Below, one piece after another: positions 1,155 through 41,550 of a stretch of 64,000 nucleotides of DNA. The stretch covers positions 6,595 to 70,594 of the forward strand of contig CAYYLF010000001.1 of the NCBI GenBank assembly GCA_964472425.1, written 5' to 3'. A program made the position numbers and the translations under genes. Within the stretch, counting starts at the first letter, position 1, and every line of letters starts with the position of its first letter. This stretch comes from an uncultured Muribaculaceae bacterium. GTDB taxonomy: Bacteria > Bacillota_I > Bacilli_A > RF39 > UBA660. The notes under the pieces were generated by a model. It worked only from the letters and a program-made list of their open reading frames with translations, searched no databases and was not told where the DNA came from.

Positions 1155-1171
1155 AGGAGGGAAAGAGGAAT

Positions 1172-1459: not shown

Positions 1460-1465
1460 TTAAAA

Positions 1466-1496: not shown

Positions 1497-1498
1497 GT

Positions 1499-2275
1499 TT
1501 AGAGTGTGGAAGTGAGGTCTAAAAAGACATCGAGGCCTAGTTCTTCGGCTCTATTCGTGAGGTCGAATCCGTGTCTTTTTAGGATGGTTTCTAATTTTAT
1601 TCTGTCGCGGCTTTTGAGATTGTTGCCAATCGTCTTGCGCTTAAATTGGAAGGAGTCTCTGAGGAGTCGTTTGAATTTTGGGTAATCTATTTCTTGCCGC
1701 TTTTTTGGGGTAAGTTTGAGGACAGCACTATCGACGTTGGGGGCAGGAATAAATTTTTCGCGGGTGACGTCGGTCACTTTTTGTATTTCGTAATGGTAAT
1801 TTAAGAGTACAGTCATGTATCCGTATTCGCGATGGCCCGGTGTAGCAAGAAATCGCTCGGCAACTTCTTTTTGAACCATTATGGTAAAGCCGTTGTGCTC
1901 TATTTCCGAGTCGATTATGTGTTCTATTATCGGGGTCGTAATGTAGTATGGCAGGTTTCCGACGATATAGAGATTTTCGTAGGAGTATTTTTGTAAAAAT
2001 TTGAAAATGTCGACTTCCAAAAAGTCGGAATAGACGATTTCGGTCTTTTCATCTTCGAGAGGAAGCAAATATTTTTTAGTGTCTTCGTCTATTTCGAAGG
2101 CGACGAGTTGAGCACGATAATTTTTGAGTTTTTTTGTGATGGCTCCCCCACCCGGGCCTATTTCGATAATCAAGTCATTTTCGGTCGGGTTTATCGAGCT
2201 CACAATTTTGTCTATAGTTTGGTCGTCACGTAGGAAGTTTTGCCCATATTTTTTTTTGAATTTGAATTTAGTCAT
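1499..2275 (-). CDS. rsmA: 16S rRNA (adenine1518/1519-N6)-dimethyltransferase RsmA/KsgA
   Basis: Motifs KYGQNFL, EIGPGGGAITKKL and NLPYYITTP. Start placed at the internal MTKFKF, which has a GAGGTG RBS; the ORF-track start would lack an RBS. Confidence 0.9.
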   Translation of the reverse strand: MTKFKFKKKYGQNFLRDDQTIDKIVSSINPTENDLIIEIGPGGGAITKKLKNYRAQLVAFEIDEDTKKYLLPLEDEKTEIVYSDFLEVDIFKFLQKYSYENLYIVGNLPYYITTPIIEHIIDSEIEHNGFTIMVQKEVAERFLATPGHREYGYMTVLLNYHYEIQKVTDVTREKFIPAPNVDSAVLKLTPKKRQEIDYPKFKRLLRDSFQFKRKTIGNNLKSRDRIKLETILKRHGFDLTNRAEELGLDVFLDLTSTL

Positions 2276-2324
2276 TTTTTTCACCTCTTCAATAGTATCA
2301 CATTTTGGAATAAATAAAAAGAAC

Positions 2325-2873
2325 TCACGAAAGCTCGCGAGTCCATCCAAAGCGAAGGATGTCGTAGTTTATCTTTTTGCTTCCGACTTTCGTGATAGCA
2401 GTATCGACCGAATCGACGAGTAAGTCGAGAGTCGTGCCGGTAACTCCACGGTCGAGGACTATGGCAGTTATTTCTCCCGTCGAAGAAAGGGTGTCGTTTT
2501 TAAATCTAACTATGGAACCACATGGCAAGCTAGTCGAAGAAGCAACTATGCGGACTGTCCCGTACTGTGAATCGTCGTAAGTCGTCGTACCATCGAGAAC
2601 GTTTTGTCTGTTGCAGCCAAGGAAACCGGAGCAAAGTGGACAGTCGGCTACATAGCCAGTTAAAGTACCATTGTAAGTGTCGAGAACCGTGTTTAAATCG
2701 GTGGCCCGGAAGTTTTGGATGACTTTAGCCATCGCATTGAGGTCGACGTTTTTGTTCAGATTGGTATTGGTCGATGAAGTTACGGTCGTGATACTGCTGT
2801 TTTGGAAACAGAGGATGACTCCGATTAAGAGGCTAGCGCATATCACTTTGTAGAGCGTCTTTACTTTTTTCAT
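2325..2873 (-). CDS. Secreted 3D-domain protein (YabE-like, MltA/RlpA-type double-psi barrel)
   Basis: Signal peptide MKKVKTLYKVICASLLIGVIL. C-terminal motif AIVLDRGVTGTTLDLLVDS resembles the 3D domain. Its position between tatD and rsmA matches B. subtilis yabE. Start at M17, which has an AAGGAG RBS. Confidence 0.65.
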   Translation of the reverse strand: MKKVKTLYKVICASLLIGVILCFQNSSITTVTSSTNTNLNKNVDLNAMAKVIQNFRATDLNTVLDTYNGTLTGYVADCPLCSGFLGCNRQNVLDGTTTYDDSQYGTVRIVASSTSLPCGSIVRFKNDTLSSTGEITAIVLDRGVTGTTLDLLVDSVDTAITKVGSKKINYDILRFGWTRELS

Positions 2874-2917
2874 CCATCTTCTACTCCTTACTGTGCAACA
2901 GTTTATCATAAAAGTGG

Positions 2918-3673
2918 TCAAATGTCAAAAAGGTCATGTACGTTCTTTTGGGTGATGGCGCTCACTTCTTCTAGAGTGAGATTTAGTTCACGATCGACGA
3001 AGGTGGCAATGTGTCGAATGTTGGCCGGTTCGTTGGTGGTTCCTCGGACTGGTTCGGGGGCGAGGTACGGCGAGTCGGTTTCTAAAAGGATGCTTTCTAC
3101 TGGAATGTTTGCTAGCACTTCTTTGAGTCTGGCATTTTTGAAAGTTAGGACCCCTCCGAATCCGAGTTTGTAACCCATCTTTATATATATGTTGGCTGTC
3201 TCTAGTGAACCGCTAAAACAATGGATGGAACCGGTAACTGATGGATATTTTTTGAGAATGGCGATGGTATCTTCGGTTGCGTCGCGAGAATGTACTATGA
3301 CCGGCTTATGATATTTTTCGGCGAGAGCGAGTTGACTTTCGAAGAGTTCCTTCTGTCTTTCTCGGTCACACGGTTCGTAATGGTAATCGAGGCCTATTTC
3401 TCCAATTGCCACTATCTCGTCGATGGCGTTTTCGATTATACTCAGCTGTCCTTTTTCGAAATTATCGATGTCTTCCGGATGAAACCCGAGGGCGGCATAT
3501 ATACTTTCATATTTTTGTGCGAGAGCGAGAACCTCGAGGTTCGATTCACGGTTGGAGCCATTTACTATCATTTTCGTTATGCCGGCAGCTTTAGCATTTT
3601 CGATTATCTTGTCGATGTCTTCGTAGTATTCTTTCAGTATATGACAGTGTGTATCTGTAAACATTTTAATCAC
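2918..3673 (-). CDS. tatD: TatD-family metal-dependent DNase
   Basis: N-terminal FTDTHCH metal-binding motif. Sits between metG and yabE-like, as in Bacillus. Confidence 0.9.
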   Translation of the reverse strand: MIKMFTDTHCHILKEYYEDIDKIIENAKAAGITKMIVNGSNRESNLEVLALAQKYESIYAALGFHPEDIDNFEKGQLSIIENAIDEIVAIGEIGLDYHYEPCDRERQKELFESQLALAEKYHKPVIVHSRDATEDTIAILKKYPSVTGSIHCFSGSLETANIYIKMGYKLGFGGVLTFKNARLKEVLANIPVESILLETDSPYLAPEPVRGTTNEPANIRHIATFVDRELNLTLEEVSAITQKNVHDLFDI

Positions 3674-3715
3674 CTAGAAAAAGTATAGTTAAAAGTCCGA
3701 AAAAAGTAAAGAATT

Positions 3716-3729
3716 ATTTCCCGGGAAAT
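3716..3729. promoter_or_regulatory. Perfect Noc-binding-site (NBS) palindrome ATTTCCCGGGAAAT in the metG-tatD intergenic region
   Basis: Exact 14-mer, identical to the copies in the 15.5-16.5 kb array. Confidence 0.55.
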
Positions 3730-3734
3730 AATTT

Positions 3735-3763
3735 TGGAAAAAAAGATGTCCATAAAACATCTT
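3735..3763 (-). terminator. metG rho-independent terminator (GATGTTTTATGGACATC followed by TTTTTTT)
   Basis: Hairpin and T-run immediately after the metG stop at 3768. Confidence 0.6.
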
Positions 3764-3767
3764 TCTT

Positions 3768-5300
3768 CTATTCAGTTGGGAGTTCCAACCTCCCAAAAAG
3801 TGGATGAGGTTCCATAGTGACGGTGTATGTGTCTCCACTTCTATAACTAGCCGTCTCGAAGTTCTCTTCTCGTTTACCTATTTGGGAAAGCGCGTCTTTT
3901 GAACTCGTTGGCATGAAGGGCTCTAAAAGAATGGCAGTCACGCGAATCGATTCTAGGAGATTGTATAGGACAGTTTGTAGTCTGTCTTTTTTCGACTCGT
4001 CTTTGGCGAGGACCCATGGGGCCGTGTCGTCGATGTACTTGTTCGAGAGTCTAAGTATGTCGAAAATTTCTTCCAAGACTTTGGACACTTGGAGATTGTC
4101 TATCTTTTCGTCGGTCGTGTGTTTGAGGTTATCGATTTTGGAAATCAATTCGTCGTCCAGAGGTTCTGTGACTTTAGTATCCTCGACGTGGCCTTGGAAA
4201 TATTTGTTAGCCATGCCTATCGTGCGGTTGACGAGATTGCCCCAGATATTCGCGAGGTCCGAATTCGTACGGTTGATGAGGGCTTCTTCCGAAAAGTTAC
4301 CGTCGTTTCCGAAAGGAATTTCTCTTAGAAGAAAGTAGCGAACGGCATCGACTCCGTATTTGGCTATGTAGTCGCGAGGGTCTTTGTAGTTGCCGAGGCT
4401 TTTAGAAATCTTGTTTCCTTCGATTATGAGCCAGCCGTGGCCGAATACTTTATGAGGCAACGGCAAATCTAGGGCCATGAGGATTATTGGCCAAATTATG
4501 GTGTGAAATCTGACTATTTCTTTTCCGACTATGTGGACATCCGCAGGCCAATATTTTTGGAATTTGGAGTCGTCGTCCGTCGAGTAACCGAGTGCGGTGA
4601 TGTAATTTGAGAGAGCGTCGAGCCAAACGTATACGACGTGTTTTTCGTCGAAGGTGACTGGTATTCCCCAATTGAAGCTCGTCCTAGATACACATAAGTC
4701 TTCGAGGCCCGGCTTGATGAAATTGTTGAGCATCTCGTTTTTGCGCGATTCTGGTTGAATGAAGTCGGGATGTGTCTCGATGTATTCTTCTAGTCTATTT
4801 TGATATTTGGACAGTTTTAAGAAATAAGCTTCTTCACTGACTTCGTGAACTGGACGACCACAGTCGGGACATAAGCCGTCTTTAGCTTGGGTTTCAGTCC
4901 AAAAGGATTCACATGGCGTGCAATAGAGGCCTTTGTATTCGCCTTTGTAGATGTCGTCTTGGTCGTAGAGTTTTGCAAATATCTTTTGAACGATGGCGAC
5001 GTGGTCTTCGTCGGTCGTGCGGATGAAGCGGTCGTAGGTGATGCCGAGGCTCTTCCAGAGGTCTTTGGCGTTTTCGACTATCTCGTCGACGTATTTTTGC
5101 GGAGTTACTCCGGCTTCTAAAGCTTTTTTCTCGATTTTCTGACCGTGTTCGTCACTTCCCGTCAAAAAGTAGGTATCGTATCCATCCAATCTTTTGTATC
5201 TCGCGATGGCATCCGCGATTATCGTACTGTAGCAATGTCCAATGTGGAAGTTGGCAGATGGATAATAGATTGGGGTCGTAATGTAGAATTTCTTTTCCAT
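3768..5300 (-). CDS. metG: Methionine--tRNA ligase
   Basis: HIGH-type motif (PIYYPSANFHIGH) and KMSKS (KISKSLGN). Start at MEKKFYITTP. Confidence 0.95.
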   Translation of the reverse strand: MEKKFYITTPIYYPSANFHIGHCYSTIIADAIARYKRLDGYDTYFLTGSDEHGQKIEKKALEAGVTPQKYVDEIVENAKDLWKSLGITYDRFIRTTDEDHVAIVQKIFAKLYDQDDIYKGEYKGLYCTPCESFWTETQAKDGLCPDCGRPVHEVSEEAYFLKLSKYQNRLEEYIETHPDFIQPESRKNEMLNNFIKPGLEDLCVSRTSFNWGIPVTFDEKHVVYVWLDALSNYITALGYSTDDDSKFQKYWPADVHIVGKEIVRFHTIIWPIILMALDLPLPHKVFGHGWLIIEGNKISKSLGNYKDPRDYIAKYGVDAVRYFLLREIPFGNDGNFSEEALINRTNSDLANIWGNLVNRTIGMANKYFQGHVEDTKVTEPLDDELISKIDNLKHTTDEKIDNLQVSKVLEEIFDILRLSNKYIDDTAPWVLAKDESKKDRLQTVLYNLLESIRVTAILLEPFMPTSSKDALSQIGKREENFETASYRSGDTYTVTMEPHPLFGRLELPTE

Positions 5301-5319
5301 TTTGTTTTCCTTCTTTCTA

Positions 5320-5545
5320 AATAAAAAAATCACGAATTTAAGGACGAGTTGGAGACCCGCGGTACCACCTTAATTCATGATAATCATGCACTTTATCCTT
5401 TAACGCAGGTATACGTTTGAACTCCAAAACCATGTTCGATTGCCCTATCCACTATTTTGCACCAACCAATAGTTCTCTTGGCGACTCGGGCTAATTTACT
5501 CTTTTCTTCTCAGTTCAATACGTCAATAATATCACAGAAGACCGG
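5320..5545 (-). ncRNA. T-box riboswitch leader regulating metG (tRNA-Met sensing)
   Basis: The minus-strand RNA contains AATTAAGGTGGTACCGCGGG at 5357-5376, which matches the T-box consensus AAnnAGGGTGGnACCGCG. This T-box forms the 5' arm of a terminator, UCAUGAAUUAAGG...CCUUAAAUUCGUGA followed by UUUUUUU, placed just upstream of the metG RBS. Confidence 0.8.
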
Positions 5546-5550
5546 TCAAA

Positions 5551-6075
5551 TCAATAGTTATTGAGTTGTTTTTCGATGAGAGTTGCAAAAATTTTGAGTG
5601 TATCTGCATTGTTTAATTCGCATTCGCGATTGTACTCGATGAGGAGTCCTGCGCGGTCACCATCGACTATGATGGGCAGAATATTCGCATATCCCATCAG
5701 AATGGAGTCTTCGAGCAGGTATTTTATCTGTTCGTTTTTGCATTCCGTACAAGTAGCGAGGAGATTTTTTAGGTCTTCTCCGAGAGTCTTGCCGACGTAT
5801 GCTTTGTCGGTAGAAGCGAGAACACTTTCCCTCGTAGTTAAAATATATTCGTTGGATGTGGTTCTAGAACCGACATCGAGAAGAAAGTTTGCATATTCGG
5901 CTATGTCCGGCAAGGCCGAGTATTTTTTGATGCGTATTTCGTCGTCTTCGATGTATATTTCTAGAGGTTCGCTGTCTTTTATGTGCAGTTTCTTGCGAAT
6001 GTCTTTCGGAATAACTATTCTTCCGAGTTCATCGATTCTTCTAATGTTACTATTTTGTGCCAAAGTTATCACCAA
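5551..6075 (-). CDS. spoVT: AbrB-type N-terminal domain plus GAF-like C-terminal domain; SpoVT-like regulator
   Basis: N-terminal IRRIDELGRIVIPKDIRKKL is a SpoVT/AbrB swapped-hairpin motif. 174 aa. Lies immediately downstream of mfd, as B. subtilis spoVT does. Confidence 0.7.
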   Translation of the reverse strand: MVITLAQNSNIRRIDELGRIVIPKDIRKKLHIKDSEPLEIYIEDDEIRIKKYSALPDIAEYANFLLDVGSRTTSNEYILTTRESVLASTDKAYVGKTLGEDLKNLLATCTECKNEQIKYLLEDSILMGYANILPIIVDGDRAGLLIEYNRECELNNADTLKIFATLIEKQLNNY

Positions 6076-15480: not shown

Positions 15481-15510
15481 TTTTATCATATATTATTGGT
15501 TATTGCAAAT
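15481..15510 (-). promoter_or_regulatory. Promoter for ffs-tadA-dnaX (TTGCAA, 17-nt spacer, TAAAAT); its -35 abuts parS-1
   Basis: Seen in the reverse complement, CATTTGCAATAACCAATAATATATGATAAAATTTAGAA. The predicted TSS coincides with the predicted 5' end of the SRP RNA. Confidence 0.45.
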
Positions 15511-15525
15511 GTTTCACGTGAAACT
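15510..15525. promoter_or_regulatory. parS-1 TGTTTCACGTGAAACT (15 of 16 vs consensus)
   Basis: Compared with the B. subtilis parS consensus TGTTCCACGTGAAACA. Confidence 0.7.
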
Positions 15526-15542
15526 TAGTGCAGCTACTAGTT

Positions 15543-15556
15543 ATTTCCCGGGAAAT
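15543..15556. promoter_or_regulatory. NBS-1 ATTTCCCGGGAAAT (perfect)
   Basis: Exact match to the published Noc-binding consensus. Confidence 0.7.
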
Positions 15557-15664
15557 AATTAGAGTGGATGGCTCAGCGATTTGCCAAAATTTAAAATTGC
15601 CAAATATTAAATTTGGTAATTTGGATATAGCTATAAAACTTTTGCGGAATCATTTCAAATCGCA

Positions 15665-15680
15665 TGTTTCACGTGGAACA
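15665..15680. promoter_or_regulatory. parS-2 TGTTTCACGTGGAACA (equals consensus read on the other strand), followed by TGTGAAAAC
   Basis: Exact match to the B. subtilis parS. Confidence 0.8.
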
Positions 15681-15730
15681 TGTGAAAACCAAGCTTTTAT
15701 TTTTGGCTCAGTTTATTAGAATCATTAATT

Positions 15731-15744
15731 ATTTCCCAGGAAAT
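15731..15744. promoter_or_regulatory. NBS-2 ATTTCCCAGGAAAT (one central mismatch)
   Basis: 13 of 14 match. Confidence 0.55.
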
Positions 15745-15772
15745 ATTTTTTATTAACCAGTTATCTAGTTAA

Positions 15773-15788
15773 TGTTCCACGTGAAACA
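15773..15788. promoter_or_regulatory. parS-3 TGTTCCACGTGAAACA (exact), followed by TGTGGAAAA at 15791-15799
   Basis: Exact parS with an abutting DnaA-box-like 9-mer. Confidence 0.8.
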
Positions 15789-15916
15789 TATGTGGAAAAG
15801 TGACAATTTATAAATTTATGAGATTATAGCGTATGAATAATCTAAATTGTAATAAATTCTCCAAAGTTGCTGCTCACACAATATATTAGAAAATGACTGC
15901 AAGTCAATTGTTAAAT

Positions 15917-15930
15917 ATTTCCCAGGAAAT
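15917..15930. promoter_or_regulatory. NBS-3 ATTTCCCAGGAAAT
   Basis: 13 of 14 match. Confidence 0.55.
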
Positions 15931-15953
15931 AGCAATATTTGTGTTACACTTAA

Positions 15954-15969
15954 TGTTCCACGTGGAACA
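15954..15969. promoter_or_regulatory. parS-4 TGTTCCACGTGGAACA (perfect palindrome), followed by TGTGGAAAA at 15972-15980
   Basis: Perfect 16-bp palindrome. Confidence 0.8.
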
Positions 15970-16102
15970 AGTGTGGAAAAGTGACGATAACCGGCACTTT
16001 ATGAAAAAGCAAAATATGAGAATCTAATTACTTTTAGGCTTATCACGTGCAATTTCTCATAACTTATTAAAAAATAGAAAACAGTAAATAAGTTAGTCGA
16101 AT

Positions 16103-16116
16103 ATTTCCCGGGAAAT
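16103..16116. promoter_or_regulatory. NBS-4 ATTTCCCGGGAAAT (perfect)
   Basis: Exact match. Confidence 0.7.
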
Positions 16117-16132
16117 AAGATAATTGAATTCA

Positions 16133-16148
16133 TGTTCCACGTGGAACA
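16133..16148. promoter_or_regulatory. parS-5 TGTTCCACGTGGAACA (perfect), overlapping TGTGGAAAA at 16149-16157
   Basis: Perfect palindrome. Confidence 0.8.
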
Positions 16149-16264
16149 TGTGGAAAACCCCAAGAAATCGGTAACTTTTATCAAAAAAAGTTTTAGAATG
16201 AAATTAGTAGTTATTCTACAATTGATTATTTGCACGGTCACTTAAGTTTAAATCGCTGACAAAT

Positions 16265-16278
16265 ATTTCCTGGGAAAT
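16265..16278. promoter_or_regulatory. NBS-5 ATTTCCTGGGAAAT
   Basis: 13 of 14 match. Confidence 0.55.
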
Positions 16279-16287
16279 AATTATTAA

Positions 16288-16303
16288 TGGTTCACGTGGA
16301 ACC
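16288..16303. promoter_or_regulatory. parS-6, degenerate: TGGTTCACGTGGAACC (13 of 16)
   Basis: CACGTG core with a degenerate left arm. Confidence 0.4.
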
Positions 16304-16387
16304 TGTAGAAAAGTAAGTTGGTTTACTATTACGTTCGGTTATTAAATATTAATTGGAAATATAAAATAGTAATCGCTATCTAGTCGA

Positions 16388-16403
16388 TGTTCCACGTGGA
16401 ACA
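16388..16403. promoter_or_regulatory. parS-7 TGTTCCACGTGGAACA (perfect), with TTTTCCACA at 16423-16431
   Basis: Perfect palindrome. Confidence 0.8.
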
Positions 16404-16510
16404 TCTAGTAGCTTCATTGGTGTTTTCCACACGTACTATGTTTTAGCTACTAAAAATCAAATTTGGCAAATTTGATTTTTGGCAAATTGATGCACTCCTC
16501 ACCCCTAATT

Positions 16511-16524
16511 ATTTCCCGGGAAAT
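16511..16524. promoter_or_regulatory. NBS-6 ATTTCCCGGGAAAT (perfect)
   Basis: Exact match. Confidence 0.7.
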
Positions 16525-16530
16525 AATATA

Positions 16531-16563
16531 ACAAAAAAAACTGAGTTTTCCACACTCAGTTTT
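16531..16563. terminator. gyrA terminator, bidirectional (CTGAGT-TTTCCAC-ACTCAG flanked by A8 and T4)
   Basis: 6-bp stem with a T-run on the minus strand right after the gyrA stop. The loop itself contains a TTTTCCACA DnaA-box-like motif. Confidence 0.6.
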
Positions 16564-16570: not shown

Positions 16571-19192
16571 CTATTCTTCTGTCTCCATTTTTTCATTTTC
16601 CACAGTTTCTTGCTCTGTTACTTCATTGGAGTTTTCCACAGTTGAATTTACTGGCACATTTTCTTCTTGCGCTTCAGTGATTTTTTCCACAACGGAAATC
16701 GATGAGACGGTTTGATTGTCTTTGAGATTAATCAGTCTAACGCCTTGGGCATTTCTACTCAATTGAGATATACTCGTAGAATCGAGTCTTATTACCATTC
16801 CAGAATCGGTAATGATTACGATATCCTTGTCATCATCTATAATATTAAATGATGCAATTCCTCCGTTCTTTTCCGTTATATTAAGGGCTTTTACTCCTTT
16901 GCTTCCACGACGAGTTTCTCTAAATTCACGAACAAATGTTCGCTTTCCATATCCTTTCTTGGTAACTATCAGAAGATTCGTGTCTATATCACAGACATCG
17001 GCACATATACATTCTCCATCAGGCATATTGATTCCTCGAACTCCTGCGGCTGTTCTTCCCATGATTCTTATCTCTGCTTCGTCGAAGAGAACGGTACGTC
17101 CGTTGGTAGAGCCTAGAAGTACTTTGTTTTCTCCAGTTGTCTTTTTGACTGCTATGAGTTCGTCGTCATCTTTCAAAGTGATACTTATTTTACCCGTTTG
17201 TCTGATGTTTTCGAAGTCTTCGATAGCTGTACGTTTGACTATTCCCTTTTTCGTTGCGAATAGTAAGTATTTAAGTTCTTCCTCTTCTTTGCTTATCTTG
17301 ATGATAGAGCTAATCGTTTCATCCTTTTCGATATGTAAAAGGTTGATAATAGGAAGGCCTTTCGATTGACGGTTAAATTCCGGTATTTCATAGCCCTTTA
17401 TACGATATACTTTACCTTTGTTTGTAAAGAACAAGATGTAGTCGTGTGTCGATACATTGACCATCAACTTGACATTGTCTTCTTCGTTCGTACTGATTCC
17501 TTTGACTCCTACGCCTCCACGATTTTGGGTTTTATATGTGTCCGCGGCGAGTCGTTTGATGTATCCCTTTTCTGTAAGGGTTATCATGCTATTTTCTTCT
17601 GGTATCAAAGATTCGTCTTCGATGTATTCGATAGCCGTCATATCTATCTTCGTACGGCGTTCATCGGCGTATTTGTCTTTGATTTCGGTAAGTTCTTTCT
17701 TGATAATATCGTTTACTTTTTGCTCAGAAGCTAGAATACTCTTGAGTTCTTCGATGAGAGCGAGTAAATTACGCAACTCTTCTTCGATTTTGGCTCTTTC
17801 TAAACCGGTCAATCGACGAAGTTTTAACTCGAGAATACTATCGGCTTGTATTTCAGAGAATCCGAATCTTTTTATCAACTTTTCTTTGGCTATCGAATCG
17901 CTTTCGGCCTCTTTTATTATTTTGATTACTTCGTCGATGTTGTCGAGAGCGAGTTTGTATCCTTCCAAGATGTGAACGCGTTTTTCAGCTTTATCTAGTT
18001 CGAATTTAGTACGGCGAACGATGACTTCTCTTTGGTGGTCGATATATTTACTGATTATACTCTTGAGACCTAGAGTCTTAGGAACGCCCATGTCGAGCAT
18101 CAAGAACATAATACTGTAGGTCGTTTGGAAGGCCGTGTGTTTGTACAGGTTATTGAGTACGACTTGTGGATTAGCATCTCTTTTGAGTGTAATCGTTATT
18201 TTTATGCCATTTTTCAAATCCGTGTGGTAGTCAGAGATACCGTCTATCGTCTTATTATGGACTAATTCTGCTACTTTATTTTTAAGTTCACGCGTATTGA
18301 TTCCATACGGAACTTCGTCGATGATGATGTAACTTTTGCCGTGTTTTTCTTCGATGATGGCTTTGCTTCTTATCGTTATGGTTCCGCGCCCCGTCTCGTA
18401 GGCTTGCCTGATACCACTGTTTCCGAGTATTATAGCGCCAGTCGGGAAGTCTGGTCCCTTAATGTATTGCATGAGGCCAAGTGTATCGATGTCGGGATTG
18501 TCTATATAGGCTATACAGCCATCTATCACTTCGCCCAAGTTATGAGGCGGGATGTTAGTGGCCATTCCGACGGCTATTCCGGTCGTACCGTTTACCAATA
18601 TGTTAGGGAAACGAGATGGAAGAACCGTGGGCTCTTTTTCAGATCCGTCAAAGTTGTCGTCGAAGTTAACCGTGTTTTTATTGATATCTCTCAGCAGTTC
18701 CAACGATATTTTAGATAACCTAGATTCCGTGTAACGCATGGCGGCGGCTCCATCACCTTCGATATTACCGAAGTTTCCGTGACCATCGACAAGCATATTT
18801 CTGAAACTGAAGTCTTGGGCCATACGGACCATAGCTTCATAGATAGATGAGTCGCCATGTGGATGGTATTTACCCATGACGTCTCCGACTATACGGGCAC
18901 TTTTCTTATGCGGCTTATCTGGAGTATAGCCAGATTCGTACATCGAATAGAGTATTCTTCGGTGAACAGGCTTCAGACCATCTCGCAAATCCGGTAGAGC
19001 ACGGGCCGTGATGACACTTAGAGAATATTCGATAAAGGAGTCTTCGATTTCTTTGACGATATCGTTGTGTTGTAGTTTATCGCGTTCCGGAAAATCGACG
19101 ACGACTTCTTCTTCAGTAGATTCGACTTCATCGGTCGATTCGGTCGTTTCCAATTCTATAGTAGATTCTAGTTCTTTGTTTTCTTCTTCCAT
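16571..19192 (-). CDS. gyrA: DNA gyrase subunit A
   Basis: Active-site region [20 protein letters not shown], the catalytic Tyr region and a GyrA-box. Start placed at MEEENKE, which has a GGAGG RBS; the ORF-track start has none. Both N- and C-terminal tails are acidic. Confidence 0.95.
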
Positions 19193-19202
19193 TTTAAACC
19201 TC

Positions 19203-22233
<3,031 letters not shown>

Positions 22234-22341
22234 CTTAATACTCCGAATAATAAATTTACTAGGTATGGACGTACTCCTGTACCTAGTAATAATTATACCA
22301 TATTATGGGGCTGTTTTAAATGTTTTTTGGCCTTTTGAGCA

Positions 22342-22812
22342 TCATTTTTTTCTTTTGGGAGCTTTTCGTTTGCGTATGACTGCTTCGAGCCTCGTCGCTC
22401 GCAAAACTTGGTTGTCGATTATCTTGTGAGAAACGGCAACTTGCAGCTGAAGATTGTTTTGAAATCTAATCAAACTGTCGTTGGCATAGGGCTGATACGA
22501 GACGATGTTTTTGAGCGATAACCAGGTACAATCATTTTGGCGGGGACTCGCCGTGGGGAAGAATATCAAGCTATGGGAGTCTTCTATTAATATGGGAGCT
22601 TTGTGAGTCACTCCTATCATTTCGAGGGTACCTTTTTTGCGACCGGCATAAGAACTTCCAAAGTATTCACAGTTATCGGCAATAATTCTGTTCGCGTTTT
22701 TACTTACGATGAAGACAGCACCGCTTTCGTAAATTTTGGCTTTTCGTTTGCTCAGTGGGATGATAGCTAGTGTGTCGTCGTTTATCAAATAGTTTTCTTT
22801 CATCTTTTTCAC
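22342..22812 (-). CDS. comK: Competence transcription factor ComK homolog
   Basis: Ours reads CEYFGSSYAGRKKGTLEMIGVTHKAPILIEDSHSLIFFPTASPRQNDCTWLS. B. subtilis ComK reads CRFFGSSYAGRKAGTYEVTKISHKPPIMVDPSNQIFLFPTLSSTRPQCGWIS (aligned from memory). Confidence 0.7.
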   Translation of the reverse strand: MKKMKENYLINDDTLAIIPLSKRKAKIYESGAVFIVSKNANRIIADNCEYFGSSYAGRKKGTLEMIGVTHKAPILIEDSHSLIFFPTASPRQNDCTWLSLKNIVSYQPYANDSLIRFQNNLQLQVAVSHKIIDNQVLRATRLEAVIRKRKAPKRKK

Positions 22813-22957
22813 CTCCTCGGGTGTCTCTTATACACCAAAGGACTGTCGAAATTTGCCACAATTTGTCAGAAGAGGCCAATTTTTTTCAAAAGATGTGGAA
22901 AAATGACTATTTTTCCACTTTGTCGTTTTGAAAATATGCAATTTTGTCAAGTTTCGA

Positions 22958-22988
22958 ATATTCAAAAAAGACACTTTTCAAAAATGTC
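22958..22988 (-). terminator. dnaN terminator (AAGACATTTTTGAAAAGTGTCTT followed by T-run)
   Basis: Hairpin and T-run directly after the dnaN stop. Confidence 0.5.
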
Positions 22989-22989
22989 T

Positions 22990-24108
22990 TTAGTAGGTCT
23001 TTATAGGTAGAATCAGTTGAACTAAAGTTTCGTCCTTGGCCGACTTGATGACTATCGGTTTGATTTCGCTGTTTAGGAGGACGACAAGTTCGGTATCGTC
23101 TATCGTCTTTAGAGCATCCATCATGTATTTGGCACTGAAGGAAATGGCGACGTTGGCTCCTTCGTTTTTCTCGATGGTAATCGTCTCTTCCGTTCTTCCA
23201 ATTTCCGAAGAGAAAGAGGTAATGTAGAGTTCATTGTCGTGAGTCTCCATCTTGACGATGTTTTGTTCTTTTCCTTGAGTGAGGAGAGATGCACGATCGA
23301 TAGCACTCATGAAGTCGACGTAGTTTGTACTCAATATAATCTCGAAATTGTCCGGAATCAAGTTGTTCGTGTTGGGATAAGAACCGGAAAGGAGATTGGA
23401 TTGGAAGGTGATATTCTTATATATAAAGAGAATCTTATTCGTGAAGATGTGCATTTCGACCGGTTCATCATCGTTGATTATCTTATCCAATTCGTTGATG
23501 TTGCCACCCGGAATGGTGATGTTTATCTCTTCTTTGATGAATTCGTCGAGGGTTATCGTCTTTTTGGCGAGACGGTAAGAGTCCGTCGCGGTCACTTCCA
23601 TGATGTTTCCTTGCAATTTGAAGTTGAGACCGGTTAGAAGAGGTCTAGATTCTTGGTTACTTATCGCAAATACGGTTTGTTTTATAATAGTTTTGAAGAG
23701 TCCTCCCTTAATTTTGATAGGGTCTTTCTGATAGTCTATCTTTATCTGTGGATAATCCTCGACTTTTAAACAGTTCAAACTGAACTGACTGGTCTTGGCT
23801 GTGATGACGACTTTGAGTCCGTCGACTACTTCGATGTCGACCGTGTCGTCTGGGAGTTTTCTTATTATATCGTTTATATATTTACTTTGAATGACTATGC
23901 TTCCCTCGACATCCACGCGTTTGATATTTTCTCTTTTGATGAACGATTTGATGGTGAGGTCTGTATCACTCGCGGTCAAGTATAGTCCTTCCATATTTAG
24001 TTCCATCTTTATACCGTTTAAAACCGGTATGACATTTTTTATGGAAATGGCTTTCGTTACATTGTTCAAGTTTTCTAAGAGTATGTTTTTTTCGATTGTG
24101 AATTTCAT
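22990..24108 (-). CDS. dnaN: DNA polymerase III beta sliding clamp
   Basis: About 372 aa with a three-domain clamp. Start at MKFTIEKN, which has a GAAGGA RBS. Confidence 0.95.
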   Translation of the reverse strand: MKFTIEKNILLENLNNVTKAISIKNVIPVLNGIKMELNMEGLYLTASDTDLTIKSFIKRENIKRVDVEGSIVIQSKYINDIIRKLPDDTVDIEVVDGLKVVITAKTSQFSLNCLKVEDYPQIKIDYQKDPIKIKGGLFKTIIKQTVFAISNQESRPLLTGLNFKLQGNIMEVTATDSYRLAKKTITLDEFIKEEINITIPGGNINELDKIINDDEPVEMHIFTNKILFIYKNITFQSNLLSGSYPNTNNLIPDNFEIILSTNYVDFMSAIDRASLLTQGKEQNIVKMETHDNELYITSFSSEIGRTEETITIEKNEGANVAISFSAKYMMDALKTIDDTELVVLLNSEIKPIVIKSAKDETLVQLILPIKTY

Positions 24109-24249
24109 TTTTTTTCCTTCTTTCTTATTTAATATTATATTATTATTCATATATTCTGTGGAATTTGTGGAAAAGTGCTTTTTTATCCACGGACAAGTGG
24201 GTTTGAGTCCTGTCGAAATGTTGTGGAAAAGTAAACACTTATCGACAGT
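24109..24249. other. oriC DnaA-box cluster II (dnaA-dnaN spacer)
   Basis: TGTGGAATT at 24147, TGTGGAAAA at 24157, TTATCCACG at 24173 and TGTGGAAAA at 24212. Confidence 0.8.
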
Positions 24250-25674
24250 TTACCCAATGTTATTTTTTATCTCTCGGATTATTTCTTTGAGTTGATTGTT
24301 GACCTTGAGGTCGGCTTCTATTTTATCACAAGCGTACATGATAGTCGAGTGGTCACGGTTTCCGAATTCGAGTCCTATCTTGGGGAACGATTCGTCCGTG
24401 TAGTTTCTACAAAGATAGATAGCTATTTGCCGCGGGTAATTGATATTTGCCGTTCGCTTTTTGCTCTTCAAATCTTCGACAGTTATTTTGTAGTAGTCGG
24501 CGACCGCTTTTTGAATTTTGGCTATATTCGAATCCATATAAACCGAACTTTTGAGGTAATCTCGTAAGGCTTCGTTCGCGAACTCGAGGTCGATTTTGTG
24601 CGGGCCCATCATGGCCGCATAGGCGTAGAGTCTCGTTATCGCGCCTTCGATATGTCGTACGTCGTTTTCACTGTTGTTGGCGATGTATTCGACGACTTCC
24701 TCTTCGACGAGGTTGGCGACCGCATGGCCAGCCATCTTGTTGCGAACTATCCGCTTTTTGAGGTCGATGTCCGGAGGATAGATGTTGACGGTCAGTCCCC
24801 AGCTGAATCTCGTAATGAGCCTTTCTTCTAGGAGCTTTAAATCGTCGGGACTGCGGTCCGAACTGATAATAATTTGTTTGTTCATATCATATAATGTATT
24901 GAAGGTATGAAAGAATTCTTGTTGAGTCTTCTCGGCCTTCTCGAGAAATTGGATATCATCTATCATGAGGACGTCGATGCCTCTATATTTTTCTTTGAAC
25001 ATTTGAATGCTCTTCGAATCTCTATTCATATTGATGGTCGTGAATTCCGATTTGAATGTCTCGCTCGTCACATAGAGAACGCGTTTGTTCGAATGAGCTG
25101 TGATATAGTTTCCTATCGCATGCATCAGGTGAGTTTTTCCTAATCCACTCTTGCCGTGAATGAAAAACGGATTGAAAAGCTTGCCTGGCTGCTCGGCCAC
25201 ATGGCGCGCGCCTTCGAAAGCGAGTCTGTTGGAATTTTCTCCGACTATGAAGTTTTCGAAAGTGTATTTTCCCGAAAGATTCGACTCGAAAGGTTGTGTA
25301 TAAGTGTGTGTGTTTTGCACAGGTGGTGCGGCTTGCCTAGTAGATGGAGGTTCATTGGTGGGTGGCGTCTCGTCTTTGGCCGTGGCCAATTCTTCTTCCA
25401 AAATAAATTCGATATTACAATTTTTGCCGAGAATCGATTCCATCAATTCTTCGATGGTGTCGAGGTAACGCTTTATGAGGGAGTCTTTTATATATTGGGA
25501 ACTGGTCATAATCGTGATAACTTTGATAGATTTGTTGTTTTGAACTGCATCGTCGATTTTGTAAATTTCGCAATGTTTGAACCACGAGTTTATCGATACG
25601 ACAGAGACTCTTTTCTCAAGCAATCCAAGAAAATTTTTCCAAATCAAACTGTTCTCTTCATTCATGAACCTCAC
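24250..25674 (-). CDS. dnaA: Chromosomal replication initiator DnaA
   Basis: AAA+ Walker A GKSGLGKTHL, and C-terminal DnaA signature in the helix-turn-helix region. Confidence 0.95.
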   Translation of the reverse strand: MRFMNEENSLIWKNFLGLLEKRVSVVSINSWFKHCEIYKIDDAVQNNKSIKVITIMTSSQYIKDSLIKRYLDTIEELMESILGKNCNIEFILEEELATAKDETPPTNEPPSTRQAAPPVQNTHTYTQPFESNLSGKYTFENFIVGENSNRLAFEGARHVAEQPGKLFNPFFIHGKSGLGKTHLMHAIGNYITAHSNKRVLYVTSETFKSEFTTINMNRDSKSIQMFKEKYRGIDVLMIDDIQFLEKAEKTQQEFFHTFNTLYDMNKQIIISSDRSPDDLKLLEERLITRFSWGLTVNIYPPDIDLKKRIVRNKMAGHAVANLVEEEVVEYIANNSENDVRHIEGAITRLYAYAAMMGPHKIDLEFANEALRDYLKSSVYMDSNIAKIQKAVADYYKITVEDLKSKKRTANINYPRQIAIYLCRNYTDESFPKIGLEFGNRDHSTIMYACDKIEADLKVNNQLKEIIREIKNNIG

Positions 25675-25989
25675 CCCGGTTTCCTGTTAATTTCATTTTA
25701 ACGTAAAACAAAAAAAAGGTAAAGATGCAAATTGCCAAAAAAGAAATTTACAACATTTTTCGACAAATTTTGTGGAAAACTTGTGCTTGTCATTTCCTGT
25801 AAATAAAAGGAAAATTCAAATTATCCACAATTTCCACAAAATTGGTGCGTCCACAGTGTGGATAAGTTATCAACATACTGTGGAAACGATGTTGAAAAAT
25901 TTGTTGAAAACAATCGACCTAATTGACTTGACTTTTGTTGGGATGGTATAATATAATACATGTGAATTTTAGATGTGGAGGTGCAGAAA
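25675..25989. other. oriC DnaA-box cluster I with AT-rich region and rpmH promoter
   Basis: TGTGGAAAA at 25771, TTATCCACA at 25821, ATTTCCACA at 25830, TGTGGATAA at 25857 and TGTGGAAAC at 25879. Promoter TTGACT, 18-nt spacer, TGGTATAAT at 25923-25952. Confidence 0.85.
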
Positions 25990-32965: not shown

Positions 32966-34117
32966 GTGAATAATGAACAAGTTCAAGAGATATTTGTCGA
33001 AGATATCATACCTAATAGATTTCAACCTAGGCTCACTTTCGATGAGAAGGCATTACAGGAACTGTCCGACTCGATAAAAGTCCACGGGGTCATTCAGCCC
33101 TTGGTGTTGAGGAAAGTCGGGAACAAGTACGAGATAATTGCCGGGGAGCGTAGGTACAAAGCATCATGTATGGCGGGATTAAAGAAGGTACCCGCGATTG
33201 TGCGCGAGCTAACGGACAACGAGAGTGCGGAAATCGCTTTAATCGAGAATATTCAAAGGAAAAATTTATCCAGTATAGAAGAGGCTCAGAGTTACAAGAA
33301 TCTCTTGGAAAGAGGTTATTTGACTCAGGATGAGTTGGCGAAGAAGTTGGGAGTGTCTCAACCTACTATTGCGAATAAATTGCGGCTTTTGAATCTTTGT
33401 GACGAGGTGCAGAATGCCCTTTTGAACGAACAGATTAGTGAGCGGCATGCGCGGAGTTTACTCCAAATTACTAATCCGGATGAACAGAAGAAGATGCTCA
33501 ATCGCATAGTGAAGGAGCGTCTGACGGTCAAACAGTTGGATAACGAAATCAAGAAGTTGTCGCAAGCAGATAGCGAAGCGGCTGGACAGGCTTCGGGAGA
33601 TAATTCTGGAGGAGGAATGGTTATGGAACCAAATGGACAGAATGTAGAAACGGGTATGAATGGCGTTCAGGAGCCACCAAAGCCTACGAAGAATATCTTC
33701 GGTTTTGCGATGGAGCCTCCTACGGATTTGGAGACTAGTGCACCGAATTTGACGGTAGGTGAGGAAGAGTTCGTTCCACCAATCAGTTTCAATCCGTTTG
33801 GGGGCGATACACAGAACAGTGTCCAACCCAACGAGACGGTTCTTCCACCGGTCAGTGAGCCGGAAACTATCGAAACGTTCGATATGTTTGGAGATGTCAT
33901 GAAGCCAGAGGAGCCAGCACCTAGTGCACCGTTCAGTTTCGATGCAGGAGTCAATCCTCAAGGTGCGCCGGTGGCAAGTGCTCCGCGCAGTGTCGGGGAC
34001 GAGATAAACAGCATCAGAGAAGCCGTCCGCGGAGCCGAGGCCGATGGTTTCCGAGTAGAATTAGAAGAGTACGATTTCGAAGATATGTATCAAATCGTGA
34101 TAAAACTCAAGAAGTAA
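32966..34117 (+). CDS. noc: ParB-family CTPase with Noc-type DNA-recognition residues (Noc-like); long disordered C-terminal linker and Spo0J-like terminal dimerisation helix
   Basis: ParB N-domain and GERRY CTP-binding motif at 60-64. HTH region VSQPTIANKLRLLNL...ISERHARSL is closer to B. subtilis Noc (GQSTIANKLRLLKL...ITERHARAL) than to Spo0J (SRPHIANHLRLLTL...LSMGHGRTL). It directly follows rsmG, as noc does. GTG start with an AAAGGGG RBS. Confidence 0.75.
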   Translation: MNNEQVQEIFVEDIIPNRFQPRLTFDEKALQELSDSIKVHGVIQPLVLRKVGNKYEIIAGERRYKASCMAGLKKVPAIVRELTDNESAEIALIENIQRKNLSSIEEAQSYKNLLERGYLTQDELAKKLGVSQPTIANKLRLLNLCDEVQNALLNEQISERHARSLLQITNPDEQKKMLNRIVKERLTVKQLDNEIKKLSQADSEAAGQASGDNSGGGMVMEPNGQNVETGMNGVQEPPKPTKNIFGFAMEPPTDLETSAPNLTVGEEEFVPPISFNPFGGDTQNSVQPNETVLPPVSEPETIETFDMFGDVMKPEEPAPSAPFSFDAGVNPQGAPVASAPRSVGDEINSIREAVRGAEADGFRVELEEYDFEDMYQIVIKLKK

Positions 34118-36275: not shown

Positions 36276-38213
36276 TTATTTTGAGACGTCCAAATAGATT
36301 TGTGGTTCGGTCCCTTTGACGAAGTAGAACATGGTACTTCGTCCTTTTTTTCCGTATTCGCCAGTCACGGGGTTGAGCGGGATGCCGATGACGTTTTTCG
36401 GAGTTTCATACCAAGAGGCCGGGGTGTCTTTGAGAGTTGTTTCCATCGTGTCGGCCCAGATATTTTTGACGACGGTTGCATAACCTTCGACGGCAAGGCC
36501 ATTGTCTTTGCCGGTCCAAATCATCAAAAGGGCGTCGGGGTTGTAACCGACTATCCAGTTGTCGGAGTCGGTCGTACCCGTTTTGATGGCGTAGTCTCTA
36601 GATAGACGGCCACGCATGTTGATGACGGTAGGAGTGTTGAATTCGATGAAGTCCGGATTGTAGGTGTTCGTGAGCATTTGGTTTAAGATGTAAACGTAGT
36701 TGTAGTTGAGGATAAGTTCGTCCGCGTTTTTCCGTTCGTAGATGAGGTTTCCATTCATGTCTTCGACTCGTCTTATCATGTGGATGTCGCGAGAGTAGCC
36801 TCCACTCGCAAGGGTGGTATATGCTTCGGCAAAGTCGAGCATGCCGAGTTCGATGGTGCCCAGTGGAAGCGACGGAATGGCCGGAAGGTCCTGTTTAAGA
36901 CCGATGGTTTTCATGGTGTTCGGTAGAACATCTTCTCCTAAAAAGATATGGGTTTTGACCGCGTATACGTTGTCGGAGTAGGATAGAGCCGCGGCCATCG
37001 TGATATTTTTGTTGCCGTAGAGATTGTTGAAGTTGGCAGGACTGTAGGTGGTGTTGTTCGCGAGGTTGAAGGTCGTGGCTTCGCTTCGGAAGGTGGAGGA
37101 CATCGTAAGACCATTGGCAAGTGCTGAATAGTAGAGAAACGGTTTCATAGTCGAGCCGACTTGTCTTTTGGATTGGGTGGCTCGATTGAATTGACTCGTA
37201 CTGTAGTTGCGGCCTCCGACGAGAGCTTTTAGAGCTCCGGTTTTGGGGTCTATATAGACGGAAGCTATTTGGGTGTCGTCGTCTAGCATGTTTTCTTTCA
37301 TCGCATTTTCGAGAGTGGTTTGGGTTTGAAGGTCGAGGGTCGTATAGATTTTGAGGCCGCCCGATTCGATTATGGATGAGGGAATGTTAGATAAAGATGT
37401 GAGTTCGGCGAGTACGGCGTCTTGGTAGTACATGAGGGTGGAGAGGTTGTTCTTGTCGCGTTTGCCGTATATTTCGATAGGTTTTTGGAAGAGATTTTGT
37501 CTTTCTTCTTCGGTGATGTAGCCGTTGGTGACCATGGTGTCGGCGACCAGTTTGGCTCGACTAATCGAAAGGTCGTAGTCCGAGACGGGGTTGTAGTAAC
37601 CTGGGCTTTTGGGAATGGCCGCGAGAATGCAGGCTTCTTCCAAAGTGAGGTTGCTCGCCGATTTGTCGAAGTAGTATAGCGAGGCATCTTGGATTCCATA
37701 GTTACCTTGACCGAAGTTGATGGTGTTCAAATAGCCTTCGAGTATCTCTTCTTTGGAGTAATGGACTTCCAGTTCGAGGGTGAGAAGGGCTTCTTCTATT
37801 TTACGAGCCCAAGTTTTCTCGAAAGTGAGGTACATATTTTTGACGTATTGCATACTGATGGTCGAGGCACCTTCTTGTCTAGAGTGGGTTCTTATGTTGT
37901 TGAGCATGGCTTTGGCGATTCGAAGGTAATCGAAACCTTGGTGTTTGTAGAAGTTTTTGTCTTCGATGGAGACTATAGCATTTTTGAGGTTTTGTGAGAT
38001 GTCGTCGTATCCTACCCACTCCGAAGACGACGAACCTTGGTAGACCAGTTCGTTGTTTTCATCATATATATAGAATTTGCCGTTCGTCTTGATGGCTATC
38101 TTGGGCGAGAGGAAGGCATAAAGGTAGAGGCCTCCTAAGGTGAGGATGCCCGTGATTACGAGAATGACGAATACTTTGGCGGTCGTTTTTAGAAATTTTT
38201 TGATAATAAACAC
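36276..38213 (-). CDS. Class A penicillin-binding protein (bifunctional glycosyltransferase and transpeptidase)
   Basis: N-terminal TM helix. GT51 motifs EDKNFYKHQGFD and GASTISMQYVKN. C-terminal transpeptidase motifs STMKP and KTGT. Confidence 0.9.
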   Translation of the reverse strand: MFIIKKFLKTTAKVFVILVITGILTLGGLYLYAFLSPKIAIKTNGKFYIYDENNELVYQGSSSSEWVGYDDISQNLKNAIVSIEDKNFYKHQGFDYLRIAKAMLNNIRTHSRQEGASTISMQYVKNMYLTFEKTWARKIEEALLTLELEVHYSKEEILEGYLNTINFGQGNYGIQDASLYYFDKSASNLTLEEACILAAIPKSPGYYNPVSDYDLSISRAKLVADTMVTNGYITEEERQNLFQKPIEIYGKRDKNNLSTLMYYQDAVLAELTSLSNIPSSIIESGGLKIYTTLDLQTQTTLENAMKENMLDDDTQIASVYIDPKTGALKALVGGRNYSTSQFNRATQSKRQVGSTMKPFLYYSALANGLTMSSTFRSEATTFNLANNTTYSPANFNNLYGNKNITMAAALSYSDNVYAVKTHIFLGEDVLPNTMKTIGLKQDLPAIPSLPLGTIELGMLDFAEAYTTLASGGYSRDIHMIRRVEDMNGNLIYERKNADELILNYNYVYILNQMLTNTYNPDFIEFNTPTVINMRGRLSRDYAIKTGTTDSDNWIVGYNPDALLMIWTGKDNGLAVEGYATVVKNIWADTMETTLKDTPASWYETPKNVIGIPLNPVTGEYGKKGRSTMFYFVKGTEPQIYLDVSK

Positions 38214-41034: not shown

Positions 41035-41550
41035 ATGAAACAGTTAGTCATTTTAATCATAATAGCAGTGGGCGTCGTCTTATTGGGTAGAGGTACTGAG
41101 TATGTCGAGATTCCCTCGTCTTCTATAAGAATGAGGGTCATCGCGGCAAGCGATTCGGATGTCGATCAGGCCGAGAAGCGAGTCGTGAAGTCGTTCGTCG
41201 AGGAGAAATTGTACGAGCTCATCGAAGGAGTTGATGACGAAGGCGAAGTCGAAAGGATAATTTCAGAAGCGAAGGACGAAATCGACGAAGAAGTGTCGAC
41301 GAAGATGGAAAAGGCCAATTTGAAGGTGTCTTACAGTTCCAATTTCGGGTACAATTATTTTCCCGAGAAGGAGTTCAAGGGCTTGACGTACAAAGCCGGG
41401 AATTATAAGTCGTTCGTCGTCACTTTGGGAGAAGGCGAAGGCGAGAATTGGTGGTGCGTGTTGTATCCGCCTTTGTGTCTCATCGATGAGAATAAAAGTG
41501 AATATGAGTATCATTCTTTAATAAAAGACACCATCTTAAAATATAATTAG
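41035..41550 (+). CDS. spoIIR: Stage II sporulation protein R-like (SpoIIR family)
   Basis: Signal or TM segment. Conserved NWWCVLYPPLC motif. Lies next to prfA-prmC, as in B. subtilis. Confidence 0.6.
   Translation: MKQLVILIIIAVGVVLLGRGTEYVEIPSSSIRMRVIAASDSDVDQAEKRVVKSFVEEKLYELIEGVDDEGEVERIISEAKDEIDEEVSTKMEKANLKVSYSSNFGYNYFPEKEFKGLTYKAGNYKSFVVTLGEGEGENWWCVLYPPLCLIDENKSEYEYHSLIKDTILKYN

Follow-up and report, generated by a model that had tools for sequence, protein, structure and literature searches.

The DNA analysed here is a stretch of 64,000 nucleotides of an uncultured bacterium (contig CAYYLF010000001.1), called "the window" at its full length. Between dnaN and recF it carries a gene, comK, whose predicted product is a short form of the competence regulator ComK. 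This gene has kept its place in a large clade of uncultured Bacilli, and it is preceded by a promoter of its own in which conserved direct repeats resemble the binding sites of Spo0A. We consider that there is about an even chance that this short-form ComK is gated by phosphorylated Spo0A (Spo0A~P) or by a similar factor. The gene and its ribosome-binding site are placed as follows.

22342 to 22803, - strand: short-form ComK-family gene, 153 amino acids (aa) from the ATG at 22801-22803 to the stop codon TGA at 22342-22344
22812 to 22816, - strand: ribosome-binding site GGAGG of comK

The initial annotation had described a ComK homolog of 156 aa at this place, with a conserved FGSSYAGRK...FFPT core. 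A profile search bears out the family: the Pfam ComK model (PF06338) is matched with an E value of 4.1e-41 and a score of 140.7 bits (cut-off 22.3), residues 5-149 being aligned on positions 1-150 of the 152 of the model, so that the protein consists of a ComK domain and nothing else. The length has to be corrected. An open reading frame (ORF) of 156 codons does exist (22342-22812, - strand) and is the longest one, but its opening GTG at 22812 falls within the ribosome-binding site GGAGGTG, and the identical NCBI protein (P0001) has 153 aa; hence we prefer the ATG at 22803, and the protein is likely to have 153 aa. In an alignment of 34 sequences, the columns G52, S53, G57, R58, F85, P86 and T87 of the two cores are invariant, as are the motifs FGSSYxGR, FFPT and NQVxR, which align with those of a provisional B. 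subtilis ComK sequence. The DNA-binding core is strongly conserved relative to canonical ComK, judging by the Pfam match and by that alignment. Together these comparisons place the predicted product in the ComK family of DNA-binding transcription factors, as a short member reduced to the domain itself.

Aligned with residues 10-167 of B. subtilis ComK, for which the provisional sequence served, the protein shows 33% identity and then ends. In this comparison, the last 25 of the 192 residues of B. subtilis ComK, a tail which includes the FMLYPK MecA-targeting motif, are without counterpart. The proteins of the clade are similarly short, all 74 unique ones having 145-158 aa; in canonical ComK, the C-terminal tail of about 25 residues serves both activation and targeting by MecA/ClpCP. 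In B. subtilis, removal of these last 25 residues abolishes activation while DNA binding is kept (PMC3128618, citing Susanna 2006). Since the protein stops where the activation tail of the provisional sequence starts, the short ComK may be a modulator or a repressor, or may activate by another route. Its AF2 (AlphaFold 2) model has a pLDDT (predicted local distance difference test score) of 93.9, and the nearest solved folds are LytTR DNA-binding domains (AgrA, ComE and a B. cereus LytTR protein), with Foldseek probabilities of 0.98-0.99, E values of 0.02-0.1 and TM (template modelling) scores of 0.45-0.60 on the target. A sequence search of the PDB returned no solved ComK structure. ComK, LytTR, RemA and SwrD have already been grouped by fold in a 2026 preprint (PMC13232269).

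We compared 94 loci, namely the window and others, including 80 metagenome loci at 43-59% identity; these are loci of roughly 6-12 kb each. In 74 of the 94, dnaN lies directly upstream of comK, and recF and gyrB lie downstream in most. The order dnaN-comK-recF is kept even where the identity to the window proteins falls to about 46% for DnaA, about 46% for DnaN and about 35-40% for RecF. A locus recovered from a related genome (72% ComK identity) shows the same order dnaA-dnaN-comK-recF-gyrB-gyrA, and so do the loci of P0075, P0061, P0028 and P0080 (50-64% identity), while P0101 (50%) is located differently. The placement is unusual and conserved, and its persistence at a DnaA identity of about 46% means that it is ancient: the gene is not a recent insertion devoid of a promoter. 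The remaining copies of comK lie between ligA and gatCAB and form, in a neighbour-joining tree, a single group nested among the dnaN-type copies. Hence, the dnaN-recF slot is ancestral and one later move took place. On the evidence of gene order and of this tree, comK has been passed on by vertical descent at its place between dnaN and recF, all through a large clade of uncultured Bacilli. Its members come from gut, rumen, termite and digester samples, and the source labels of the relatives are only those of "Bacilli bacterium", "Tenericutes bacterium" or "bacterium" metagenome-assembled genomes. A full profile search gave about 1,700 ComK-family clusters at 50% identity, in which the short form tops the ranks and the canonical form of 185-205 aa comes lower; within the 94 loci the short form is the only ComK seen. 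Our text search of the literature found no published report of a ComK in the dnaN-recF slot.

A mobile element at the window locus was also considered and rejected, as conjugation genes stand beside comK only in L002-L004, which are of the ligA/gatCAB type. In these three loci, from one human-gut lineage, positions 1-5756 hold TraG/VirD4-like and DUF87 ATPase genes immediately upstream of the ligA-type comK-like gene, which suggests an integrated conjugative element adjoining it.

The signals between dnaN and comK are the following.

22964 to 22991, - strand: dnaN terminator, a hairpin AAAGACA...TGTCTTT followed by a T run and overlapping the dnaN stop codon (RNA fold -8.5 kcal/mol, z -2.5)
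22895 to 22918, - strand: perfect palindrome GTGGAAAAAT-agtc-ATTTTTCCAC of 10+10 nt (RNA fold -10.9 kcal/mol, z -3.1)
22842 to 22871, - strand: three 10-bp-phased boxes TTCTGACAAA, TTGTGGCAAA and TTTCGACAGT
22827 to 22834, - strand: -10 element TG-TATAAG of the extended -10 type (TATAAG at 22827-22832), 11 nt downstream of box 3

The hairpin and T run after dnaN are found in most relatives, and the palindrome may be a second terminator. With one or two such predicted hairpin terminators between dnaN and comK, these signals show comK to be a separate transcription unit. The gene had been described as embedded in the replication-initiation operon; this is right as far as the dnaN-recF slot goes, but a terminator separates comK from dnaN in most loci.

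We compared the upstream sequences both raw and anchored on the -10 element, using 57 dereplicated syntenic regions to count heptamers and DnaA boxes and a wider set of 69 dereplicated upstream regions to count boxes by mismatch. A common plan emerges: the hairpin and T run behind dnaN are followed by two or three direct repeats, a gap of 11 nt (in 21 loci), TG(n)TATAAG and, in many lineages, a hairpin in the 5' untranslated region (5'-UTR) ahead of the ribosome-binding site. The repeats have the clade consensus TTCGACAAAA / TTnGACAAAT / TTCGACAAAa, of which L001 and L014 are examples. There are 41 exact TTCGACA heptamers on the gene strand and one on the opposite strand, against 0.4 expected; boxes start 10 bp apart in 27 cases and 20 bp apart in 14. 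Upstream of comK their density is 3.92 per kb, with 27 tandem pairs; the remaining 337 kb of these loci have 0.086 per kb and a single tandem pair. In the window, box 3 is an exact TTCGACA (22844-22850) lying 11 nt from the -10 element. In the clade, up to three TTCGACAAAW direct repeats, one helical turn apart, span about -24 to -50. No -35 hexamer is found at 16-18 bp from the -10 element of comK. The ligA-type copies have a degenerate version of this promoter in front of them, which means that the element belongs to the gene and not to the replication origin oriC. The 64-kb window has no other copy of the repeat array, and therefore no regulon can be inferred from it.

The 5'-UTR hairpin between the -10 element and the ribosome-binding site is seen in L023, L032, L034, L046, L064, L082 and L084 and in the ligA-type loci L024, L027, L035, L039 and L076, and is missing from the comK of the window. 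Its arms vary from locus to locus, for example ATTGTTTTCT...AGAAAATAAT and AATTATAATT...AATTATAATT, and its loop is often TTGTGGAGAAA, which suggests an RNA element. No known RNA family was detected in the comK flanks with Rfam, at the gathering threshold or at E values up to 10.

Read on the other strand, TTCGACA is TGTCGAA, the Spo0A box, which, with A/T flanks, is bound alike by the Spo0A proteins of Bacillus and Clostridioides (PMC3485338). Spo0A footprints cover two boxes 3 bp apart (PMC2731898), and heptamers 3 bp apart are phased by 10 bp. The promoter of comK therefore has what promoters of the Spo0A regulon have, namely one or more such boxes, often in tandem, close to the core promoter or within it: an exact heptamer in the window and, in the clade consensus, three boxes which are phased, strand-specific and enriched. 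In B. subtilis, the comK promoter itself contains Spo0A boxes, five in number, of which one covers the -35 element, and Spo0A~P gates competence there (PMC3297582); at the B. subtilis oriC, Spo0A boxes overlap or adjoin DnaA boxes (PMC5295017). The window contains 21 exact heptamers, four of which are intergenic, and three of these four lie at the comK promoter and at the two DnaA-box clusters of oriC. Beside the DnaA boxes of oriC, Spo0A-type heptamers are seen in TTTTTCGACAAATTTTGTGGAAAA upstream of dnaA (25750-25780) and in CATTTCGACAGG between dnaA and dnaN (24205-24247), an adjacency which mirrors the overlap described for B. subtilis oriC (PMC5295017).

The window also holds a spoIIR gene (41035-41550, Pfam E value 1.5e-35) after prfA-prmC. 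The spoIIR gene of B. subtilis likewise follows prfA-prmC. In at least five cases, the longest contigs of SpoIIR and ComK homologues are equal in length (81928, 21588, 56253, 33326 and 48572 bp), which suggests that both lie on the same contigs; together with the spoIIR of the window, this makes the near clade look spore-forming. A class A penicillin-binding protein gene is found at 36276-38213. Because of spoIIR and of this gene, the lineage is taken to be walled and is probably spore-forming. Of the factors that could bind the repeats, Spo0A~P is the best candidate.

If Spo0A is the factor, phosphorylated Spo0A would bind the TTCGACAAAW repeats upstream of comK and would gate comK transcription, as activator or as repressor, by analogy with its direct action at the B. 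subtilis comK promoter. The short ComK would in turn bind DNA and regulate genes of DNA uptake and recombination (competence or K-state), and the proximity of comK to the origin may couple its gene dosage to replication.

Several observations weigh against this. From the 64-kb window and the short flanks of the other loci, no spo0A gene could be shown for this genome or clade, and spoIIR points to Spo0A only indirectly. Boxes reaching down to -24 occupy an unusual position for a Spo0A activator site. Only box 3 of the window is exact, boxes 1 and 2 being degenerate with 2 and 3 mismatches; the 64-kb window has no two boxes in tandem with one mismatch or less in each, and 17 of the 69 dereplicated upstream regions lack even a single box of that quality, the boxes being lost, for example, in the L005, L036, L042 and L056 lineages. 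The window contains no late competence genes (comG, comE, comF), so that the competence role comes from homology alone, and the B. subtilis ComK sequence used for comparison is provisional. Lastly, the dnaN-comK spacers have 11 DnaA boxes with at most one mismatch versus 2.3 expected, and there may be a minor DnaA input in some lineages.

The same repeats could be read without any role for Spo0A, as sites bound by the short ComK itself in a positive feedback, a possibility which we hold to be unlikely, though it is the main rival. B. subtilis ComK does activate its own promoter (PMC3297582), and the repeats moved with the gene to its ligA-gatCAB location. With a Foldseek probability of 0.98-0.99, the predicted fold comes nearest to LytTR domains such as those of AgrA and ComE, and direct repeats near -35 are what LytTR regulators bind. 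In addition, no tandem box pair is seen elsewhere in the 64-kb window, which is itself without competence genes. However, the motif differs from the B. subtilis ComK box (AAAA-N5-TTTT in pairs): the 64-kb window has no perfect ComK box, none with at most two mismatches lies upstream of its comK, and the matches found in 10 of 69 relatives are scattered, mostly within terminators, and keep no common position in the clade. The heptamer with its A/T flanks is, moreover, exactly the Spo0A box (PMC3485338), and the protein stops where the activation tail of the provisional B. subtilis ComK sequence starts (PMC3128618).

It is rather improbable, in our judgement, that the short ComK is no competence regulator at all, having been recruited to chromosome or replication-repair biology, for example to tune recF-gyrBA or to act near the origin. 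This would explain why the gene stays beside genes of DNA metabolism, since both of its conserved sites adjoin such genes (dnaN and recF, or ligA). The spacer between comK and recF is without an intrinsic terminator in the window, no competence genes are seen there, and the equivalent of the B. subtilis activation region is lacking by comparison with the provisional sequence; C-terminally shortened ComK2 proteins, too, behave unlike a master regulator (PMC3128618, PMC12491500). On the other hand, the dnaA-gyrA cluster is so stable in Firmicutes that a gene fixed in it early would persist without functional coupling, the comK promoter is insulated and separately regulated, and the DNA-binding core remains strongly conserved with canonical ComK.

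A further proposal keeps Spo0A~P as one input among others, and we regard it as more doubtful still: the decision to express ComK would be built into the origin region, its output integrating the replication status (through dosage and the spreading of ParB or Noc) with the level of Spo0A~P, in parallel with the pneumococcal comCDE-oriC-parS arrangement but through unrelated parts, and it may drive read-through into recF-gyrBA. Its basis is the place of comK, kept at a distance of about 3 kb from oriC in this clade; in this genome, seven parS and six Noc sites, crowded into an array of 1 kb, lie about 6 kb away.

That DnaA regulates comK through inverted TGTGGAAAA/TTTTCCAC boxes, with comK wired into the replication-initiation operon, had been suggested by the initial annotation and is very improbable, for the following reasons. 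The inverted motifs are real, being the arms of the 10+10-nt palindrome, but TGTGGAAAA lies at 22894-22902 and not at 22895. Within the palindrome, TTTTCCACA (22894-22902) is a DnaA box with one mismatch, while the second motif, TTTTCCACT, has two. The consensus of the DnaA box is TTATCCACA, with an invariant CACA core. It is true that TTTTCCACA is the commonest DnaA-box variant of the window and is present in both oriC clusters, that L010 carries the same inverted arrangement, and that the spacers show the excess of 11 over 2.3 already given. Yet the window contains 34 DnaA boxes with one mismatch versus 14.5 expected, which gives about 0.04-0.09 expected per 177-bp spacer, and a single such box in this 177-bp spacer is not remarkable on its own; each true oriC cluster has four. 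The motif is the stem of a stable hairpin which corresponds in position to the dnaN terminator of relatives, over 60 nt ahead of the -10 element and beyond the conserved repeats. Only L010 has the motif too: in L001, the closest relative, the hairpin and the T run persist and the box is lost. DnaA boxes with at most one mismatch to TTATCCACA are found in 10 of the 57 dereplicated upstream regions, at varying positions and at no conserved one, and the other 47 have none. Several of the boxes counted are the loop of the 5'-UTR hairpin, which is present too in ligA-type loci far from oriC; part of the apparent boxes is thus due to this loop. We infer that the inverted motif, though DnaA-like, belongs as a stem to a terminator-like hairpin and is no conserved DnaA operator, the conserved element of the promoter being the TTCGACA repeats. 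These repeats were also tried as weak DnaA boxes and rejected, as they read GACA where DnaA needs CACA and have 2-4 mismatches to TTATCCACA.

The other side of comK carries signals belonging to recF.

22292 to 22320, - strand: recF promoter TTTAAA, 17 nt, TGgTATAAT, in the comK-recF spacer
22257 to 22288, - strand: recF leader hairpin TACTAGGTAcAGGAGTACgtccaTACCTAGTA (RNA fold -15.1 kcal/mol, z -4.3)

The TGnTATAAT of this promoter is conserved in nearly all syntenic loci. As the spacer has no terminator, comK transcripts could extend into recF-gyrB-gyrA. The recF leader (22257-22300 in the window) is built of TGnTATAAT, 4-6 nt, and a hairpin (A)TAGGTA-TAGGAGTAC-...-TACCTA(T); in most of the syntenic loci examined (L001-L093), GTATAGGAGTA(C) is nearly invariant and the flanking stem is conserved, with covarying outer pairs CTAGG/CCTAG, ATAGG/CCTAT, GTAGG/CCTAC and ATAGTG/CACTAT. 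Rfam has no match for this hairpin. It may stabilise the 5' end, with a Shine-Dalgarno-like loop, or may regulate recF-gyrBA as a leader.

The neighbours of comK in the window are listed here.

24250 to 25674, - strand: dnaA (ORF list)
22990 to 24150, - strand: dnaN, the upstream neighbour of comK (ORF list; tblastn synteny)
21127 to 22224, - strand: recF, the downstream neighbour of comK, likely start ATG 22224 (ORF 21127-22233)
19203 to 21134, - strand: gyrB (ORF list)
16571 to 19210, - strand: gyrA (ORF list)

From about 26 kb, rnpA, yidC, jag, mnmE and further genes follow on the + strand, and both the AT skew and the gene orientation flip there. The window is a Firmicute-type origin region, with two clusters of four DnaA boxes each, at 25771-25875 upstream of dnaA and at 24166-24247 in the dnaA-dnaN spacer. 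It contains no rRNA or tRNA. The absence of yaaA and remB, already pointed out in the initial annotation, is confirmed: the dnaN-recF spacer has no S4-like yaaA in the window ORF list, and an overlap of 8 nt between recF and gyrB leaves no remB. RemB, a paralogue of RemA, would presumably fall in the same fold group as ComK.

The array mentioned above occupies 15500-16560, a non-coding stretch of about 1 kb between the gene of the signal recognition particle RNA and gyrA, in which two sets of palindromes are interleaved with a periodicity of about 155-190 bp. One set consists of seven copies of the parS palindrome (A)TGTTCCACGTGGAACA(T), the other of six copies of TATTTCCCGGGAAATA, the 16-bp Noc-binding site. 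Several parS copies run directly into TGTGGAAAA, and inverted repeats rich in TTTGGCAAAT lie on both flanks. So dense an alternation of parS and Noc sites looks unusual. Among the Pfam-scanned ORFs of the window there is only one ParB-family gene (383 aa, 32966-34117) and no ParA. At the far end, 56800-64000 has a low coding density, with only short ORFs of 72-216 aa and gaps of 230-1190 bp; the one ORF scanned there (61143-61793) has no Pfam match, and the region has no Rfam match.

Nearly all work on ComK concerns cultured Bacillus, Staphylococcus and Listeria. The locus described here points to a large uncultured branch of Bacilli, from animal guts and digesters, which has at these loci a minimal, domain-only ComK, fixed inside the dnaA-gyrA cluster and preceded by a simple, strongly conserved promoter with Spo0A-like repeats. 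Should Spo0A indeed act there, the link between sporulation signalling and competence of the B. subtilis type would be ancient, and would be present here in a stripped-down and easily testable form. An origin-proximal comK also offers a second, independent case for the idea that competence regulators stand near oriC in order to sense replication stress. Finally, the conserved promoter and protein offer a means of predicting transformability in uncultured gut Bacilli and perhaps of inducing it.

It remains to compare this locus with known systems. The comK gene of B. subtilis is located far from the origin. Its product (192 aa, the master regulator of competence and of the K-state) belongs to the same Pfam family and has the FGSSYAGRK, FFPT and NQV-R motifs in common with the short form, which, by the alignment with the provisional sequence, lacks the last 25 residues needed for activation (PMC3128618). 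In both cases comK has its own promoter with Spo0A boxes or Spo0A-type repeats (PMC3297582); unlike that of B. subtilis, the one described here has no ComK box upstream, and has instead three phased boxes, compactly arranged, and an extended -10 element. The ComK2 paralogues resemble the short form in another way: B. cereus ComK2 has a ComK domain without the C-terminal activation region and lowers comG expression (PMC3128618), and S. aureus ComK2 represses the development of competence (PMC12491500). These are, however, second copies beside a ComK1, whereas the short form stands alone within its loci of about 6-12 kb, and none has been reported in the dnaN-recF slot. As for the gene cluster, the Bacillus arrangement dnaA-dnaN-yaaA-recF-remB-gyrB-gyrA has the same flanking order and orientation; here comK replaces yaaA and remB is absent.

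In S. pneumoniae, the early competence regulator comCDE is hard-wired beside the origin, so that its dosage goes up under replication stress (PMC5034851); the comK described here has oriC at a distance of about 3 kb. comCDE is also repressed by ParB spreading from a nearby parS (PMC4488948), and here the parS array is about 6 kb from comK. Dosage or ParB effects on comK would be pure inference from this analogy, and the regulator families differ, ComE being a LytTR response regulator which works with ComX. The promoter of comK invites a last comparison. In the promoter of spoIIG, the spacing between -35 and -10 is over-long and the boxes lie over -35. The Spo0A-dependent promoters of abrB, spoIIG and A2c of phages phi29 and Nf all have tandem TGTCGAA boxes 3 bp apart, as found here (PMC2731898, PMC3485338); the repeats of comK differ from them in numbering up to three boxes and in reaching down to -24.

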